From positions 1 to 20,462 of IMG/VR virus record IMGVR_UViG_3300029839_000013: a stretch of 20,462 bases of DNA; one strand, written 5' to 3'. This document shows positions 1,208 through 16,725 of the stretch, one piece after another (the first letter of the stretch is position 1; every line of letters starts with the position of its first letter). The notes under the pieces were generated by a model that was not told the origin of the DNA, did no database searches, and was given only the letters and a program-made list of their open reading frames with translations. The position numbers and the translations under genes were made by a program. This DNA is from a virus.

Positions 1208-1351
1208 ATGAAAAAAATACAATTTTCTATTTGTGTCGATGAAGACACGTTAAAAAAGATTGATAAACTGGCTAATAATGAGGGACGCAGCCGGTCGCAA
1301 ATGATTTTATATATTTTGAAACTTTTTTTAAAAAAAGAGGGGAGCGAATAG
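1208..1351 (+). CDS. 47-aa ribbon-helix-helix (CopG/Arc/MetJ-type) DNA-binding protein.
   Basis: ATG at 1208 after AAAGGGGGG. The sequence MKKIQFSICVDEDTLKKIDKLANNEGRSRSQMILYILKLFLKKEGSE fits a beta-strand followed by two helices. It is below the ORF-track size cutoff. Confidence 0.6.
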   Translation: MKKIQFSICVDEDTLKKIDKLANNEGRSRSQMILYILKLFLKKEGSE

Positions 1352-1362
1352 CTCCCTTTTTT
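1331..1362. terminator. Bidirectional rho-independent terminator between the convergent RHH gene and the o-spanin gene.
   Basis: Stem GGGAGC-gaata-GCTCCC, followed by six T on the plus strand and by seven T on the minus strand. Confidence 0.7.
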
Positions 1363-1576
1363 ATTGCGCTTCGTGAAGTTGTTTAACGCACTCCAAAGCG
1401 TCCATTGTGGTAACTATTGAGTAGATACAATTATTTTTTGCTCGTTTACTCGCGCAGCCACTTAATAACATCATCAGGCAAAGCAGTGTTGAGACAATCG
1501 CAATCTTTATTTTGCGGTTTCGCCTCTTTTTTTCGCAATACGGCGATTTTCTTCTCGGTGCAAATAGATTTTTCAT
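1361..1576 (-). CDS. Putative o-spanin (outer-membrane lipoprotein), overlapped type.
   Basis: Signal-like segment IAIVSTLLCLMMLLSGC with an LSGC lipobox, then a short Cys-containing mature region. It starts inside the i-spanin gene in another frame and extends beyond it. Basic N-terminal extension is unusually long, so the true start is uncertain. Confidence 0.5.
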   Translation of the reverse strand: MKNLFAPRRKSPYCEKKRRNRKIKIAIVSTLLCLMMLLSGCASKRAKNNCIYSIVTTMDALECVKQLHEAQ

Positions 1577-1706
1577 TTTTAACCTTTCTTTCTTCCTCTG
1601 TGGCAGAAAAAGCAGCTTGCTGCTCTATTCTTTTCCCTTTCTCAAATTGCCAAAGCTGAAAAAGGATTATATTCGCGATTATTGAGGCCAAAAATATTTT
1701 TTTCAT
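1446..1706 (-). CDS. Putative i-spanin (type II inner-membrane protein with a periplasmic coiled-coil).
   Basis: N-terminal transmembrane segment IFLASIIANIILF, then a charged helical region. It lies at the end of the lysis cassette and overlaps the lipoprotein ORF. Confidence 0.5.
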   Translation of the reverse strand: MKKIFLASIIANIILFQLWQFEKGKRIEQQAAFSATEEERKVKNEKSICTEKKIAVLRKKEAKPQNKDCDCLNTALPDDVIKWLRE

Positions 1707-1831
1707 AAGACATCCAGAATTTTAATACTTATCGCTTCGGCCGCTTCAAATTTGTTAGAAATTAACAAATATAGACATTCCAACAATATACATATTATTA
1801 CAGCTCTTGTAAATTCAATGCCCAGCTTCAT
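1703..1831 (-). CDS. 42-aa membrane peptide lying between the hydrolase and i-spanin genes. Candidate antiholin or lysis regulator.
   Basis: Sequence MKLGIEFTRAVIICILLECLYLLISNKFEAAEAISIKILDVL. Its ATG overlaps the hydrolase TGA (ATGA), and its TGA overlaps the i-spanin ATG (ATGA). A CGGGAT ribosome-binding site lies upstream. It fills an otherwise 120-bp gap. Confidence 0.4.
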   Translation of the reverse strand: MKLGIEFTRAVIICILLECLYLLISNKFEAAEAISIKILDVL

Positions 1832-2250
1832 AATATCCCGCAATAAAATAGATGATCGCCTATCAAAAAGTCTGCTTTTTTATTTTTAGCCCACTTCGGC
1901 AAAACATTAACGGTATGATAATGGCATGCACCACATACAACGTCTTTCAATTCCCCGCTAATATATTTTTTTGCAATTTCTAAACATTTTGAAAATTGCG
2001 CGTCTTCAGTTGTTACGGATATAAGCTTTTTAAAATTCGGGTCGCTTTCATTCCAACAAGAAAATTGATGAAATTTTGAACCCTTTACACAGAATTGACA
2101 TGTTTCTGCGATTGTTGAGCCGGAAAACCATTTTTTTGCCTTGTAGCGGTTTAAAATTACGGACGCAACAGCCATTTTCCCCAAATCTGTCTCGCCTCTG
2201 GCCTCTCCGTAAATAGTGCGCGCTAAAATATCAATGTCGTTTTCTTTCAT
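1828..2250 (-). CDS. Cell-wall hydrolase of the SleB/CwlJ (Hydrolase_2) type. Probable endolysin.
   Basis: N-terminal motif LARTIYGEARGE...ASVILNR is characteristic of that family. It immediately follows the holin with a 20-nt overlap. Confidence 0.7.
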   Translation of the reverse strand: MKENDIDILARTIYGEARGETDLGKMAVASVILNRYKAKKWFSGSTIAETCQFCVKGSKFHQFSCWNESDPNFKKLISVTTEDAQFSKCLEIAKKYISGELKDVVCGACHYHTVNVLPKWAKNKKADFLIGDHLFYCGIL

Positions 2251-2434
2251 TTTTTAAATTGTCCTCTGCAATTTTTGCTTCTGCCCGCTCTTTTCTTATG
2301 CGATACACTAAATAAACAATAGTTACGATAAAGATAAACACACTTTGAATTTGCGGCAAATATTGGATAATAAGGGCAACCGCTGACCCTGCACAAATTG
2401 TGAAGCAATTATTGTTAATCATTTTTTCGACCAT
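2231..2434 (-). CDS. Holin-like small membrane protein.
   Basis: Two hydrophobic segments (CFTICAGSAVALIIQYL and VFIFIVTIVYLVY) and a charged C-terminus. AGGTGG ribosome-binding site 5 nt upstream of the ATG at 2434; the ORF track used a GTG at 2443. It is the first gene after the terminator. Confidence 0.6.
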   Translation of the reverse strand: MVEKMINNNCFTICAGSAVALIIQYLPQIQSVFIFIVTIVYLVYRIRKERAEAKIAEDNLKNERKRH

Positions 2435-2481: not shown

Positions 2482-2512
2482 AAAAAAAGGGAAAGCGCTT
2501 AACTTTCCCTTT
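2482..2512 (-). terminator. Rho-independent terminator downstream of the lysozyme-like gene.
   Basis: Stem AAGGGAAAG-cgcttaa-CTTTCCCTT, followed by seven T on the minus strand. Confidence 0.6.
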
Positions 2513-2540
2513 TGAGGTCGAAACATACAACGTTTATATA

Positions 2541-3009: not shown

Positions 3010-4221
3010 CTATTTATATTTACGTAAATATTGTAATTTTCCATATCCATTAACTGAACCGGTACCATAACCACCCCAAACAGATGCGCCGTGATGTGAC
3101 CCTGAACTGTCGCCACCGTTTCCGCCTCTGTTCAATGCTGGCGGCTGTAATAGCTCAACATACCCATGCCCGTTTAATATTGGAGCATCCGCGCCACGGC
3201 CGCCGCCTGACGCGGACGCAGAATAACCTGAATTACATTGTATTACAGTCAACCAATTATCTGGCGTTGTTAAATCGGAAATTTGGAATAAAGACGCTTG
3301 TTCCCTCACCCCTACAACCATGCGTATATTGCAGGGTCTAGCTATGTAAGCATCCCCGACATAACCGGCGGCAGAACCTGAGTAGTTTGTACCATAATAT
3401 GACCAAGTTGTCGGATTGCCGCCGCCGATGCAATGAATTTGAATAACTCCCGGCTTTGTCATTACACCGTTAAAAATTTGCTGCACATTTGGATTTGCCA
3501 CCTCTCCGATGACATACGAAGGCGCATATGCTTGAACGTCAAATACTTTTTGACCATTTAAATACGCTTGGCCTATCGGTTTCGAAACAATTTCTGTTTT
3601 TTTATTACGCCAAAAAGGGGAGCCGTTAACGTTTATTTCTGTTTTGCCAAGATAAATTTGAGCGCGGAAATATGTATCGCTTGCCGCTCCGTCGTTTCCA
3701 ATCCAAGTTTGGGGCGTATTAATTTTATAAAGACTTATTGTGTTTTCAACGGCGATTTCTTCTTTAAAATCTTTATCAGCCGTTTTTTTCATTTGTACAG
3801 TATAGCGCAACCCCGTATATTTAACGATTACGTCATAAACATTATAAGGGTCCATGCCTGTCTTACCTTTTGCATTGACTAAATCCCAGCTTGTACCGTT
3901 TGAGCTTACAAACAATGCTATTTTGCGGTTTAAAATTGCTAATTTTACACTTTTATAATTTTCCGCAGCGCCAAAAATATATTGGTCTTGATTTAAATTG
4001 CCAAGCTCGAAAGAAAATCTGACTTTTATCTCCCAAGGGTACGCCTCGGGGGTAAACGGTGGAATTTTTAAAAAATTGGCATTTGAAAACCCCTTTACAT
4101 TGTTCCCGTTTATTGTTGGGCTTCCGTTTACTTCAAAATTGTTAGATGTTAAATTAGCGGTTAAATATAATCCATTTGCGCCGTATTCTCTTATTCTTTT
4201 ACCCCTATAATACAAAGGCAT
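3010..4221 (-). CDS. Tail fibre or receptor-binding protein (403 aa) with a Gly/Ser-rich C-terminus.
   Basis: Last and largest gene of the tail module. It is Asn/Gly/Thr-rich, and its C-terminal 70 aa are glycine-rich (GGGRGADAPILNGHGY...GGNGGDSSGSHHGASVWGGYGTGSVNGYG). GGAGAA ribosome-binding site upstream. Confidence 0.6.
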   Translation of the reverse strand: MPLYYRGKRIREYGANGLYLTANLTSNNFEVNGSPTINGNNVKGFSNANFLKIPPFTPEAYPWEIKVRFSFELGNLNQDQYIFGAAENYKSVKLAILNRKIALFVSSNGTSWDLVNAKGKTGMDPYNVYDVIVKYTGLRYTVQMKKTADKDFKEEIAVENTISLYKINTPQTWIGNDGAASDTYFRAQIYLGKTEINVNGSPFWRNKKTEIVSKPIGQAYLNGQKVFDVQAYAPSYVIGEVANPNVQQIFNGVMTKPGVIQIHCIGGGNPTTWSYYGTNYSGSAAGYVGDAYIARPCNIRMVVGVREQASLFQISDLTTPDNWLTVIQCNSGYSASASGGGRGADAPILNGHGYVELLQPPALNRGGNGGDSSGSHHGASVWGGYGTGSVNGYGKLQYLRKYK

Positions 4222-9610: not shown

Positions 9611-10567
9611 TTATTCTCCTTCGCTCATAGTTGAGACAATGCGCCATGTCGCTTTAGGCTGCGGAACGTTCGCCGCTGCTGACATAACAAAATTATCTTG
9701 GTCGGCCGTCACTGCGATGCTTCCTGCCGAAATTTGTCCGCTTTCGATGTACTTGTCAATAACCTTCTGTAATTGATTTTCCAGCAACGCAGCTTCGGCC
9801 GTTGTGTAATCTGGTTCATTCAGATTAAGCCAAGTTAAAGCGCTTCCCTGCAATTTTGTAATCAATTCTTGATAAATATAAGGCGCGGCGATTGCTACCG
9901 CTCCCGCATTTCCGCCGCAGACAAAGAACGCCAAGCGGTTGCCATATTCGGGGGAGCTTAAAACAAAACTTGCGCGAATTTCAAATAAATCGTCTGCCGT
10001 ATCAAGTGAGCTAACGCCGTCGTTGTAATCCATTGCAATATATTGCTGGTTAGTCCATTTATTTTTTTTGTAGGCCAAAAGTGAGCCGAAAGCTTTAAAC
10101 ATATTATTTCCGGCGGTTTCTTCTGCCTGATAAAAAGCGCAATGGTTTTCTTTTTTTACAAACTCTTCAATCAAACTGTCATCACTGCTTGAAATTCCGA
10201 CTACTCCATCGAACCCTTTCGGTAGTGTTAAGCCTGCGAGTGCTTCATCACCGAAGGCCGGGTCAATTAATATTGTAAAATAGTCAAATTCTGACATATT
10301 GGTAATTGCGGCGCTGTCAAGTGTGAGCGCATCCATAGGCAAAGCAAAGAATGACGTTAAACCTCCCTCAATTAATGACATCGGCGCGGTTGTGTCGGTG
10401 ATAGCGGCCAACTCTGACGCGTTCGTTACCTTGATAATGGTTTTTGACATTTCAGCAGTTTTTTGTTTAACGACAGCTAAAACATTATGAAGCCGCTGCG
10501 TTGAGGGGGACGGAATAGGCGTAAACCGGTTCACCTTCATAACATATTCAAGCAAAACATCATTCAT
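9611..10567 (-). CDS. Putative tail sheath, or major tail protein (318 aa).
   Basis: The gene order (this gene, then a 138-aa gene, then G/GT, then TMP) matches the sheath-tube-chaperone-TMP layout of Mu/P2-like contractile tails. gp25-like and J-like genes are present downstream. Confidence 0.4.
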   Translation of the reverse strand: MNDVLLEYVMKVNRFTPIPSPSTQRLHNVLAVVKQKTAEMSKTIIKVTNASELAAITDTTAPMSLIEGGLTSFFALPMDALTLDSAAITNMSEFDYFTILIDPAFGDEALAGLTLPKGFDGVVGISSSDDSLIEEFVKKENHCAFYQAEETAGNNMFKAFGSLLAYKKNKWTNQQYIAMDYNDGVSSLDTADDLFEIRASFVLSSPEYGNRLAFFVCGGNAGAVAIAAPYIYQELITKLQGSALTWLNLNEPDYTTAEAALLENQLQKVIDKYIESGQISAGSIAVTADQDNFVMSAAANVPQPKATWRIVSTMSEGE

Positions 10568-11004
10568 TTTTTAAAAACTCCTTTTATTAAATTTAAGACA
10601 ACCTCAACACCTTTTGTTTTTTTCGCCGGGTCATAATCTAGGCTTACCGTGTAAAACATTGGGATTGAAGTTTGACTAAAATAGCCCTCATAATCAGGGA
10701 ATTTTATATTTTCTTCTTTACCCAAAACTAAAAACCGGCTGCACCTTTCCTTTAAATTACCTTTTTTCATCGCTTCGCGCAACCTATTTTTAAAAAATCC
10801 GTTGGGGTAACCCTCTTTTGTCCCCCACATCCCAAGATTTAGCCGCACAGTAAAACGTTGCCGTCCATATTGTACATTTTGTTTTACCTCTTCAATATCG
10901 GCGTAAATAGCGCCTTGTTCTTTGCCGCTGTCAACGCTGGCATAAATTATCTTCTTTACGCCGAAAATTGCTCTTAAATCATCTGTCAGCTTATTTTTGT
11001 ACAT
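10564..11004 (-). CDS. Head-tail joining or tail completion protein (positional).
   Basis: Lies between the capsid genes and the sheath. 146 aa. Confidence 0.3.
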   Translation of the reverse strand: MYKNKLTDDLRAIFGVKKIIYASVDSGKEQGAIYADIEEVKQNVQYGRQRFTVRLNLGMWGTKEGYPNGFFKNRLREAMKKGNLKERCSRFLVLGKEENIKFPDYEGYFSQTSIPMFYTVSLDYDPAKKTKGVEVVLNLIKGVFKK

Positions 11005-15493: not shown

Positions 15494-16725
15494 TATAACC
15501 CCCTAACATAAGATATTAAACTCGCTACGCTATCCGGTGCGTCATCATGTTTGCTATTATATTCATAATTTTTTGTTTGTTCAATAAAAATATCATTCGC
15601 CTTTATAAGCTCAGCCGGAGCATTTTTTAAACGTGTCAATTTTAAATCTGGTGTAAATGCAGCCGAATTAATTATTTTTGTGTGTTTGTTTAAAGTAGTC
15701 GTATATCCAAGACAAGGCATCCCTTGTTTGCGCAATTCAATAACTGGCAAATCGCCCAGCCCGTTCGTTTCAATGACTGTATGCTCTATGTTTAAAAGTT
15801 TATTGATTAGCAAAAGCTCTTGTGTGCATTCATACCATGGTTTTTTAAAACAAAAACCGCACATGACAAAATCCGTTAAATTTCGGCCACCGCAGACAAC
15901 AGCGGTATAATCTCGCCCTTTATGCGAAGGGTCTATCCAGCAAATCGTTTTTTTGGCAAAATAATCTACTTCTTTAACAAGCGAAAAGGGCATTTCTAAG
16001 CTGTCCATTATGTTAAGAAAATATGACGCTTGTATTGAAAATTCATCTACTCCGGCCGCTCTTTCGGCGTCAATATCGGCGTCAAGCTCTGGAATGCTGC
16101 CGTGTTTAACTTCCATTGTGTTAACTATTTTTCTTAATTGCTGGTACAAATCAAGCTTATGTACAGGCTGTCCAACAATGCCGACATTATGCGTTAACTT
16201 TATAACTTCGTCATAAATTTTTTTAACGCGGCTTCGCTCCGTCTCACTATCATCATCTGGCGTTATCGGGTCTTCCATTATAACAATATCAGGGTGACGG
16301 CCACGAAATCCTCGGCTTCTTACGCTAAGGCAATCAAGGTTTGGCTCTTTTCCCTTTGTTCCTAATAGCCGCAACACGCTTTCCGAACGATTGCGGAATT
16401 TAACGCCTTGCTTAATTAATGCTTGCCGCACTTCTTTGACAAGGTCACGGCCGCGGTCTTTTTCCTTAGTTATTAACAAAATCTTCAAATCATTGTTGTT
16501 TAAAAGAGCCTCAGCGCATCCCATGATTACAGCATAATCAGTCTTTCCATATTTTCGCGCCCCGAGTAATAAGTGAATTCCTTTTGTGTATATCAAAAAG
16601 TCTTTCATCTTAACTTGCAAAGGAAAAGGCTTAAAATATCCGCTTGCCTCGCAAAGTTCTTCAAACGAAAGATTTTTTTTCTCCGTCCTTCCAAAAGAAA
16701 AATTAAAATTCATATCAAATTTCAT
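15493..16725 (-). CDS. terL: Terminase large subunit.
   Basis: Walker A (LLLGARKYGKT). Walker B-like DIVIMEDP. C-terminal nuclease acidic motifs (WIDPSHKGRDYTAV and HDDAPDS). Confidence 0.8.
   Translation of the reverse strand: MKFDMNFNFSFGRTEKKNLSFEELCEASGYFKPFPLQVKMKDFLIYTKGIHLLLGARKYGKTDYAVIMGCAEALLNNNDLKILLITKEKDRGRDLVKEVRQALIKQGVKFRNRSESVLRLLGTKGKEPNLDCLSVRSRGFRGRHPDIVIMEDPITPDDDSETERSRVKKIYDEVIKLTHNVGIVGQPVHKLDLYQQLRKIVNTMEVKHGSIPELDADIDAERAAGVDEFSIQASYFLNIMDSLEMPFSLVKEVDYFAKKTICWIDPSHKGRDYTAVVCGGRNLTDFVMCGFCFKKPWYECTQELLLINKLLNIEHTVIETNGLGDLPVIELRKQGMPCLGYTTTLNKHTKIINSAAFTPDLKLTRLKNAPAELIKANDIFIEQTKNYEYNSKHDDAPDSVASLISYVRGL

Follow-up and report, generated by a model that had tools for sequence, protein, structure and literature searches.

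A predicted holin–endolysin–spanin lysis cassette with compact overlapped spanins in a miniature gut myovirus of a probably diderm host

What do the overlapping open reading frames (ORFs) on the minus strand at 2434→1361 of the IMG/VR record IMGVR_UViG_3300029839_000013 encode, and what do they say about the host of this virus? The window, i.e. the whole stretch of 20,462 nucleotides (nt) analysed here, is a complete circular phage genome in which the first 99 bases are the same as the last 99 (terminal repeat), with a GC content of 38%, and the phage is a ~20.4-kb miniature myovirus without an integrase. An earlier note on this DNA had read the region as a lysis cassette with overlapped spanins and an additional small membrane ORF, and had proposed a diderm Firmicute or another low-GC Gram-negative bacterium as the host. 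Our analysis suggests, with good confidence, that the region is a holin–endolysin–spanin lysis cassette and that the host of the phage is diderm.

The cassette comprises five ORFs of 67, 140, 42, 86, and 71 amino acids (aa), in that order and all on the minus strand. The gene for the 67-aa holin-like protein (2231..2434) begins at an ATG preceded by AGGTGG and overlaps the start of the gene for a predicted soluble Hydrolase_2 endolysin of 140 aa (1828..2250) by 20 nt. The stop of the endolysin gene and the start of the gene for a 42-aa peptide with a single transmembrane domain (TMD) predicted by hydropathy (1703..1831) share an ATGA, and a second ATGA joins the stop of the peptide gene to the start of the 86-aa i-spanin candidate (1446..1706). 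The 71-aa o-spanin candidate (1361..1576) has its start 130 nt into the 86-aa gene, in the +1 frame, overlaps it by 131 nt, and continues for 85 nt beyond its stop. The ORFs lie exactly where the earlier note had placed them, and both ATGA junctions and the o-spanin start within the i-spanin gene in another frame, reaching past its end, were confirmed. This gene architecture matches the overlapped spanin class (PMC6139136).

Relatives of the phage were traced via the hydrolase, after a search with the i-spanin candidate had given only near-identical proteins. Gut phage contigs of 20–26 kb (L020, L021, L100–L104, and L182) belong to the same family, as does Dulem virus 29 from lemur faeces (PP511380/PP511642), which shares ~30 collinear proteins with the window phage, its terminase being 65% and its hydrolase 62.5% identical. 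In every one of these family members, whose hydrolases are 58–72% identical to that of the window, an ORF with an N-terminal TMD and then an overlapped lipobox ORF are located 3′ of the hydrolase gene, Dulem virus 29 included. Farther from the window, the hydrolase-bearing contigs L106 and L119 have the same pair, the latter being a viral contig with a 47% identical hydrolase and type-A spanins like those of the window. The TMD/lipobox pairs of the relatives are of three unrelated sequence types. As the lipobox pattern is unspecific by itself, it is this comparative evidence that carries the case for spanins. We also counted polymorphisms in 13 strain variants, which are up to 4% divergent over the cassette. 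The ratio of synonymous to non-synonymous changes was 9:1 in the 42-aa ORF, 13:1 in the 86-aa ORF, 36:7 in the hydrolase, and 13:8 in the holin-like ORF; at the level of the predicted proteins, this shows purifying selection on the 42-aa ORF, the i-spanin candidate, and the hydrolase. None of the 13 variants has a stop in the 71-aa ORF, which keeps its full length throughout. Judged from these comparisons, all five cassette ORFs are real, conserved genes.

The best-defined member of the cassette is the hydrolase. It matches Pfam PF07486 (Hydrolase_2) with an E-value of 3e-16 and 60.3 bits against a cut-off of 27, covering profile positions 1–100 of 100, and PHROG 938 ‘endolysin’ at 4.8e-19. 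Residues 3–39, including a YGEARGE motif, align to the SleB structures 4F55/4FET, and E16 and E20 are invariant among 43 homologues. Phages of Pseudomonas, Klebsiella, and other hosts have homologues that are labelled endolysin. The protein consists of one domain of 140 aa, in which hydropathy revealed no hydrophobic segment and thus no signal peptide, signal-anchor-release (SAR) sequence, or TMD; for want of such a segment, it would have to exit through a hole made by the holin. With the SleB equivalog TIGR02869 (NCBIfam), only residues 2–40 were aligned, and the score of 39 bits is far below the cut-off of 236.5; the hydrolase is therefore not spore SleB proper, for which an N-terminal PG-binding domain would also be expected.

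The 67-aa protein has the features of a class II holin, namely two TMDs (hydrophobic segments at about residues 10–26 and 32–45, or 12–30 and 31–50, by hydropathy), a highly charged C-terminal tail (RIRKERAEAKIAEDNLKNERKRH, 14 of 23 residues charged), and a gene adjoining that of the endolysin. A 70-aa form starting at a GTG (2443) would fall within the Shine–Dalgarno (SD) sequence AGGTGG. The window protein itself had no significant family match in Pfam, PHROGs, or NCBIfam. In L103, L182, L021, L104, and L106, the hydrolase is preceded by homologues with 28–42% identity, which we refer to as the ‘PQIQ’ family; that of L103 matches PHROG 20 ‘holin’ (E-value 1.4e-3). A pinholin/SAR-endolysin system was considered for the Gly/Ala/Ser-rich first TMD, and was ruled out by the absence of an N-terminal hydrophobic segment in the hydrolase. 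The N-terminus of the window protein, M-V-E-K-M (2422–2434), has two Met codons close together, and the family as a whole starts with two Met codons 3–6 residues apart (MVEKM in the window; MKDWKM, MNKGVAM, and MNKGDMM among the homologues in L182, L021, and L104). This could be a dual start, recalling the holin/antiholin motifs of lambda S and S21. Separately, a multi-TMD protein of ~175–215 aa with a conserved LWR[IV]RGG motif, which is not found in the window, adjoins the hydrolase upstream or downstream in several relatives (L100 3400–3990, L101 1353–1930, L020 6414–6940, and L182 9384–10004). Its role may be that of an alternative holin or of another membrane protein associated with lysis.

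The 86-aa i-spanin candidate has one N-terminal TMD at about residues 1–21 or 3–21 and no second TMD by hydropathy, followed by a charged predicted periplasmic domain of ~65 aa with Cys48, a CDC motif at 68–70, and the end ...LPDDVIKWLRE. The single-sequence AlphaFold2 (AF2) model, with a mean predicted local distance difference test (pLDDT) score of 62, has a helix at 3–31, the pLDDT in that part being 79–91. The CDC motif is retained by the homologues in L101, L020, and L119. Type-B counterparts of the i-spanin match PHROG 1026 ‘Rz-like spanin’ at 1.4e-4, and the type-B pair matches PHROG 1026 and 456. The 71-aa ORF begins with a signal composed of a long basic n-region, a 16-residue uncharged h-region (IKIAIVSTLLCLMMLL), and the lipobox LLSG followed by C41, so the LSGC pattern that had been noted in 1361–1576 is present. 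The predicted mature lipopeptide is 31 aa (CASKRAKNNCIYSIVTTMDALECVKQLHEAQ), with Ala (not Asp) at +2, three Cys, and no Pro; Ala rather than Asp at +2 fits outer-membrane sorting by the E. coli rule. Cys41, Cys50, and Cys63 are invariant in six window-type sequences that are only 22–55% identical. Most of the amino-acid changes in this ORF among the strain variants affect the basic n-region, where the i-spanin frame overlaps it; the mature part has only two. The ORF matches PHROG 456 and 4306 ‘Rz-like spanin’ weakly, with E-values of 1e-4 and 8e-4 and mostly over the signal and lipobox region.

The 42-aa peptide between the endolysin and the i-spanin, MKLGIEFTRAVIICILLECLYLLISNKFEAAEAISIKILDVL, has a single hydrophobic segment at about residues 7–31 with a Glu mid-segment and an amphipathic C-terminal tail. 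Counterparts of 42–46 aa occupy the same slot in L101, L103, L182, L021, L104, and L106, and peptides of 52–54 aa are found there in twelve loci from alphaproteobacterial metagenome-assembled genomes (MAGs) and related contigs. As a MAFFT alignment of the three types was unconvincing, we term them positional counterparts rather than proven homologues. The window peptide gave nothing in Pfam, PHROGs, or NCBIfam at E ≤ 1, and the counterparts of L101 (42 aa), L103 (46 aa), and L018 (54 aa) gave no PHROGs match at E ≤ 0.1. The likeness to antiholin/LysA-type regulators proposed in the earlier note thus stands for the position and the membrane segment, but not for homology. The slot peptide and the two-TMD holin of the PQIQ family co-occur in 6 of 7 lineages, all six PQIQ-holin lineages carrying the peptide, and it is missing where the holin type differs, i.e. 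in L100, L180, L020, and Dulem virus 29, whose holin is 52 aa long. Since the peptide tracks this holin and is missing with other holin types, we favour a holin-specific role and tentatively suggest an antiholin-like partner or timing regulator of the PQIQ-type holin. A bolder idea, to which we give less credence, is that the 42–54-aa single-TMD peptides, which come in three sequence types in gut phages and in prophages of Alphaproteobacteria, are miniature lysis-timing proteins of a class not described so far, with the function of an antiholin or of a coupling factor for one particular family of two-TMD holins.

To place the host, we scanned one genome per species (185,579 species) with a hydrolase profile, considering the best 80 loci, and searched 50,697 phage records with the hydrolase by tblastn (E ≤ 1e-8). 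A homologue is carried by 74 phage records; wherever these give a host, it is proteobacterial (Klebsiella, Pseudomonas, Stenotrophomonas, Roseobacter, Caulobacter, Pelagibacter, and others), the rest are uncultured, and none name Firmicutes. The PLSDB matches are all in alphaproteobacterial replicons (6 of 6), and the best 80 genome loci are almost all in Alphaproteobacteria MAGs, many from gut or rumen. These results overturn the association of the SleB-type hydrolase with Firmicutes, pointing instead to Proteobacteria and mainly to Alphaproteobacteria. The hydrolase, a TM peptide, and overlapped spanins occur together within alphaproteobacterial contigs of 68–220 kb (L018, L023, L026, L044, and L087), and the phages L100 and L180, with 65–70% identical hydrolases, bear the alphaproteobacterial spanin type. 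Low GC, which had been taken as a host clue, is confirmed at 38%, but it is no obstacle to an alphaproteobacterial host, with contigs bearing related cassettes at 36–40% GC (L017, L018, and L023). The inference from spanins to an outer membrane is upheld: the host is very probably diderm, as predicted from its phage's genes, and on balance we consider it an uncultured low-GC gut alphaproteobacterium.

Several observations weigh against these assignments. The i-spanin candidate had no significant match in Pfam, PHROGs, or NCBIfam, its homologue search among 5.8 billion proteins returned near-identical ones only, and its AF2 model beyond the TMD has short helices at 40–44 and 78–85, the rest being of low confidence, with no confident helical periplasmic domain. 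The 71-aa ORF scored only 14 bits with NCBIfam P2_Rz1/LysC (E-value 0.032, cut-off 27), over the signal only. The topology calls combine hydropathy windows with a lipobox pattern that is unspecific alone; a loose lipobox rule gave 3 matches in the window against 0.8 ± 0.9 per shuffled 20 kb. The o-spanin signal of 40 aa, with its 24-aa basic n-region, is longer than the ‘really long’ cases of SpaninDB, and the 31-aa Pro-free mature part is shorter than any overlapped-class entry there (minimum 42). Furthermore, no convincing promoter was found for the cassette: a TTGACA hexamer, of the kind that the earlier note had read as sigma70 promoters in the genome, is present after the upstream hairpin described below, but it lacks a −10 box at 16–18 nt. 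One could argue that the 71-aa ORF is a non-coding by-product and the 86-aa protein some other membrane protein, in which case there would be no spanin and no outer-membrane inference. Such a by-product would be consistent with public gene calls, which leave the 71-aa ORF out in the window phage, with chance occurrence of the lipobox pattern about 0.8 times per 20 kb, with the lack of a significant match of either protein to a curated spanin family, with the atypically short, proline-free o-spanin, and with the label ‘cell division protein FtsL’ on a GenBank relative of the 86-aa protein. We consider it very improbable, because all divergent family members retain an overlapped lipobox ORF 3′ of the hydrolase, in three unrelated types, the Cys of the lipobox is invariant along with two others, and the 85-nt extension is open, with a nearly invariant protein, across the 13 strains. 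The ORF was called in L182, and the omission elsewhere corresponds to a documented bias, as annotation pipelines tend to leave out overlapped o-spanins (PMC6139136). In SpaninDB Table S2, o-spanin periplasmic domains of the overlapped class span 42–167 aa with an overall minimum of 27–33 aa, i-spanin periplasmic domains are as short as 47 aa (Bdellovibrio phage phi1402), and very long signal sequences of 33–36 aa are on record. Spanins are highly diverse in sequence, with over 40% of families being singletons (PMC6139136). The window pair, with ~65 and 31 periplasmic aa, is at the lower edge of the known sizes and not outside, and the position of Cys41 is kept in all four type-A sequences. For the 42-aa peptide, the role suggested above is based on position and on co-occurrence in phylogenetically non-independent genomes, which also counts against it, and its nearest rival is a hole-forming part, i.e. 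a second holin subunit or the true holin, as in two-component holin systems with small TM proteins encoded on either side of the endolysin gene. The translational coupling of the 42-aa gene to the endolysin and its strong purifying selection would suit a holin subunit, as would the GTA_holin_3TM-type ORF (after gene transfer agents, GTAs) located just 3′ of the hydrolase in L017 and many alphaproteobacterial loci, and the 6 of 7 co-occurrence fits an obligate pair as well as a regulator. Nevertheless, L100, L180, L020, and Dulem virus 29 keep hydrolase and spanins without the peptide, so cassettes of this type can do without it; no holin family is homologous to it, and a single-TMD holin of 42 aa would, to our knowledge, be smaller than characterised holins. 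We regard a hole-forming role as unlikely, and retain the tentative assignment as a partner or regulator of the PQIQ-type holin.

The placement of the host among the Alphaproteobacteria has its own difficulties. L020, the closest named relative (22.4 kb, 16 genes in common with the window, 64% identical hydrolase), was binned in a Gastranaerophilales MAG, a scan of the 185,579 species genomes with the terminase as a single protein found no relative, and no integrated copy of the phage was established. A diderm Firmicute (Negativicutes) or a Fusobacterium, with a Firmicute-type SleB hydrolase plus spanins, had been suggested, in keeping with the low GC of the genome, with the membership of the hydrolase in the same family as spore cortex-lytic enzymes, and with SD-like motifs at 20 of 33 genes, although their strength, called strong in the earlier note, is only moderate (SD core of at least 4 nt). 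Neither group appears among the best 80 genome loci, the 74 phage records, or the 6 plasmid records; the hydrolase, at 39 bits, falls far short of the SleB equivalog cut-off of ~236, low-GC alphaproteobacterial contigs bear the same module, and the nearest cultured phages infect Bdellovibrio. We therefore see very little chance of a host in either group, and for the Negativicutes in particular the proposal has to be given up. A host in the Gastranaerophilales (Melainabacteria) or a predatory Bdellovibrio-like bacterium, with which the action of the cassette would be unchanged, is a more serious candidate: besides the binning of L020 in a Candidatus Gastranaerophilales MAG, the virion module is akin to those of Bdellovibrio phages, and some hydrolase matches are in Pseudobdellovibrionaceae and Micavibrio MAGs. 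In contrast, the binning of free phage contigs is weak evidence, and two other relatives (L021 and the P0044 cluster, MBP5215512.1) were binned in Alphaproteobacteria MAGs; the module is integrated in long host contigs only in alphaproteobacterial ones, and the identity to Bdellovibrio phage proteins is just 27–37%. Such a host is possible, and we think it clearly less likely than an alphaproteobacterium. Other searches were silent on the host. The homologue search with the major capsid protein (MCP) returned only the taxon names ‘Bacteriophage sp.’ and ‘Caudoviricetes’, and the supplement of the lemur-virome paper gives no host prediction for Dulem virus 29 (PMC11281440). The terminase had no match in PLSDB; thus, there is no sign of a phage-plasmid. 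A 63.8-kb scaffold (ERZ28598090 scaffold_188, 40183–41900; L192 1–1700) joins the phage to non-phage DNA with a PF01972 SDH_protease/NfeD-like gene and a gene for a 115-aa secreted protein. Its joint contains a 100-N gap inside a DUF1566/Lcl_C gene, the left side being ~70% identical to the window there, and an integrated copy or concatemer was set aside in favour of a probable scaffolding join via a homologous gene, with integration or a hybrid element as the less probable reading. A 76-kb contig carries a 73% identical MCP.

The cassette is bracketed by two terminator-like hairpins on the minus strand. Upstream, a 12-pair stem with a T-run tail (2485..2513) follows a lysozyme-like gene, and downstream an intrinsic-terminator-like hairpin, GGGAGC...GCTCCC with a T-run (1340..1356), lies 4 nt past the o-spanin stop and faces a convergent plus-strand ribbon–helix–helix (RHH) gene (1208–1351). 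The downstream stem is kept in the strain variants. In some strains, a gene for a 239-aa N6_N4 DNA methyltransferase, which is not in the window, directly follows this stem (L002 10911–11630 and L012 10367–11086); it lies opposite to the o-spanin strand and separates the o-spanin from the RHH gene, and the terminator T-run is replaced in the strains carrying it.

We infer the biochemical roles and membrane topologies of the cassette proteins from their sequences and from the three-step lysis pathway of Gram-negative phages, in which holin, endolysin, and spanin act in turn (PMC6139136). In the proposed mechanism, the 67-aa two-TMD holin would build up in the inner membrane and open holes at a programmed time, through which the Hydrolase_2 endolysin, free of any export signal, would pass and degrade the peptidoglycan. 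The two-component spanin would then disrupt the outer membrane, probably via fusion with the inner membrane. The N-terminal TMD would hold the 86-aa i-spanin in the inner membrane, and the 31-aa o-spanin lipoprotein would be anchored in the outer membrane, with the two presumably joined at their C-termini and stabilised by the conserved cysteines. The cassette genes are likely to be translationally coupled through the 20-nt, the two ATGA, and the 131-nt +1-frame overlaps, as a unit delimited by the two hairpins.

Some neighbouring genes also deserve mention. Between the tail-fibre gene and the upstream terminator there is a lysozyme-like gene (2541–2999, minus) that the earlier note had overlooked. 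Its product matches Pfam Phage_lysozyme (GH24) with 31 bits and the NCBIfam Bartonella GTA endolysin BgtA at 3e-7, and aligns to the lysozymes 9kbq and 6et6 in the PDB. As read from the alignment, F, E, and V take the place of the catalytic E, D, and T found in lysozymes of the T4 type, and the product is probably a catalytically dead lysozyme fold. The polymorphism in this gene is 28 synonymous to 17 non-synonymous, and the gene is missing from more distant family members. Beyond it lies a gene for a glycine-rich tail-fibre-like protein of 403 aa (3010–4221, minus), which is 61% identical to its counterpart in strain L012, with the flanking genes 96–100% identical between the two; it looks like a host-range hot spot.

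The phage is very common and its family is little represented in culture. Near-identical contigs of 20–22 kb are found in hundreds of human-gut assemblies, a 175-aa virion protein of the window phage is present in 759 collection blocks, and the exact 86-aa i-spanin candidate in 578. The only cultured relatives of the family are Bdellovibrio phages, the nearest being phi1402 and MAC3UK (~24-kb myoviruses). The structural module of the window is collinear with those of MAC3UK, phi1402, and Dulem virus 29, with 13 collinear virion proteins of 27–37% identity in the case of MAC3UK, and the authors of the lemur-virome study likewise linked Dulem virus 29 to Bdellovibrio phages (PMC11281440). The cassette itself is textbook biology, and its value is practical, as it gives the Gram-type and the probable lineage of the host for a very prevalent, uncharacterised ~20-kb myovirus of the human gut. 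It also corrects the idea that SleB-type hydrolases mark Firmicute hosts. Public annotations of the phage family miss or mislabel the spanins. In the 15976–16357 region of Dulem virus 29 (PP511380.1, L184), the i-spanin-like gene is labelled ‘cell division protein ftsl’, and the GenBank o-spanin is truncated to the last 30 codons (16265–16357) of a 76-aa overlapped lipobox ORF at 16127–16357. The cassette further provides a spanin pair of very small size and a conserved membrane peptide of 42 aa, both suited to inexpensive E. coli lysis assays. If the class of miniature lysis-timing proteins proposed above is true, the window spanin pair would mark the lower size limit of a working two-component spanin.

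Finally, we compared the cassette with known lysis systems. As is usual for spanins, no sequence homology links it to the lysis genes of P2 or lambda or to a curated spanin family. Lambda Rz/Rz1 belongs to the same functional class and follows the same topology logic, with an inner-membrane type-II protein, an outer-membrane lipoprotein, and periplasmic cysteines; it differs in that the lambda pair is embedded whereas the window pair is overlapped, and Rz1 is proline-rich with a periplasmic part of 41 aa, compared to 31 aa without proline in the window o-spanin. Among the Bdellovibrio phages, whose lysis genes have no detected similarity to those of the window, phi1402 has an overlapped pair in SpaninDB, with an i-spanin of 73 aa and a periplasmic part of 47 aa (PMC6139136). 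Its o-spanin is 127 aa long, compared to 71 aa in the window. The Bdellovibrio host has a high GC content and is not known to be abundant in the gut.

Closer in composition are the alphaproteobacterial Hydrolase_2 modules of gut and rumen MAG prophages, whose endolysins belong to the same clade as that of the window with 45–54% identity. Like the window, the prophages L018, L022–L028, L036, and L044 have, in this order, a hydrolase, a TM peptide of 52–54 aa, a short i-spanin, and an overlapped o-spanin, but their spanins and TM peptides are of a sequence type (type C) unlike that of the window. GTA-type loci such as L017 differ more, with a three-TMD holin downstream of the hydrolase and no spanins. 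On the 1.56-Mb contig L017 (ERZ25073831, 38% GC), a 54% identical hydrolase adjoins a PF11351 GTA_holin_3TM gene at 10001–10899, within a capsid/terminase cluster of ~9 kb that has nadA and pyrD-like genes as neighbours; the bacterium may have a small genome, and the cluster may be GTA-like or the remnant of a degraded prophage.

The closest parallel in organisation is phage P2, whose genes for the holin Y, the endolysin K, LysA, the i-spanin LysB, and the o-spanin LysC have the same order as the window cassette and share the overlapped layout, with the o-spanin starting in the i-spanin gene in another frame and reaching beyond its end (PMC6139136). The two have no detectable homology, and the endolysin is of the Hydrolase_2 family in the window and of the K type in P2. 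P2 LysA is a much larger protein with several TMDs, whereas the middle gene of the window encodes 42 aa with one TMD. The periplasmic spanin parts are ~65 and 31 aa in the window compared to 119 and 76 aa in P2 (SpaninDB Table S2). In summary, by analogy with these systems, the predicted cassette is P2-style in function and architecture, with an overlapped two-component spanin, and is unusually compact.

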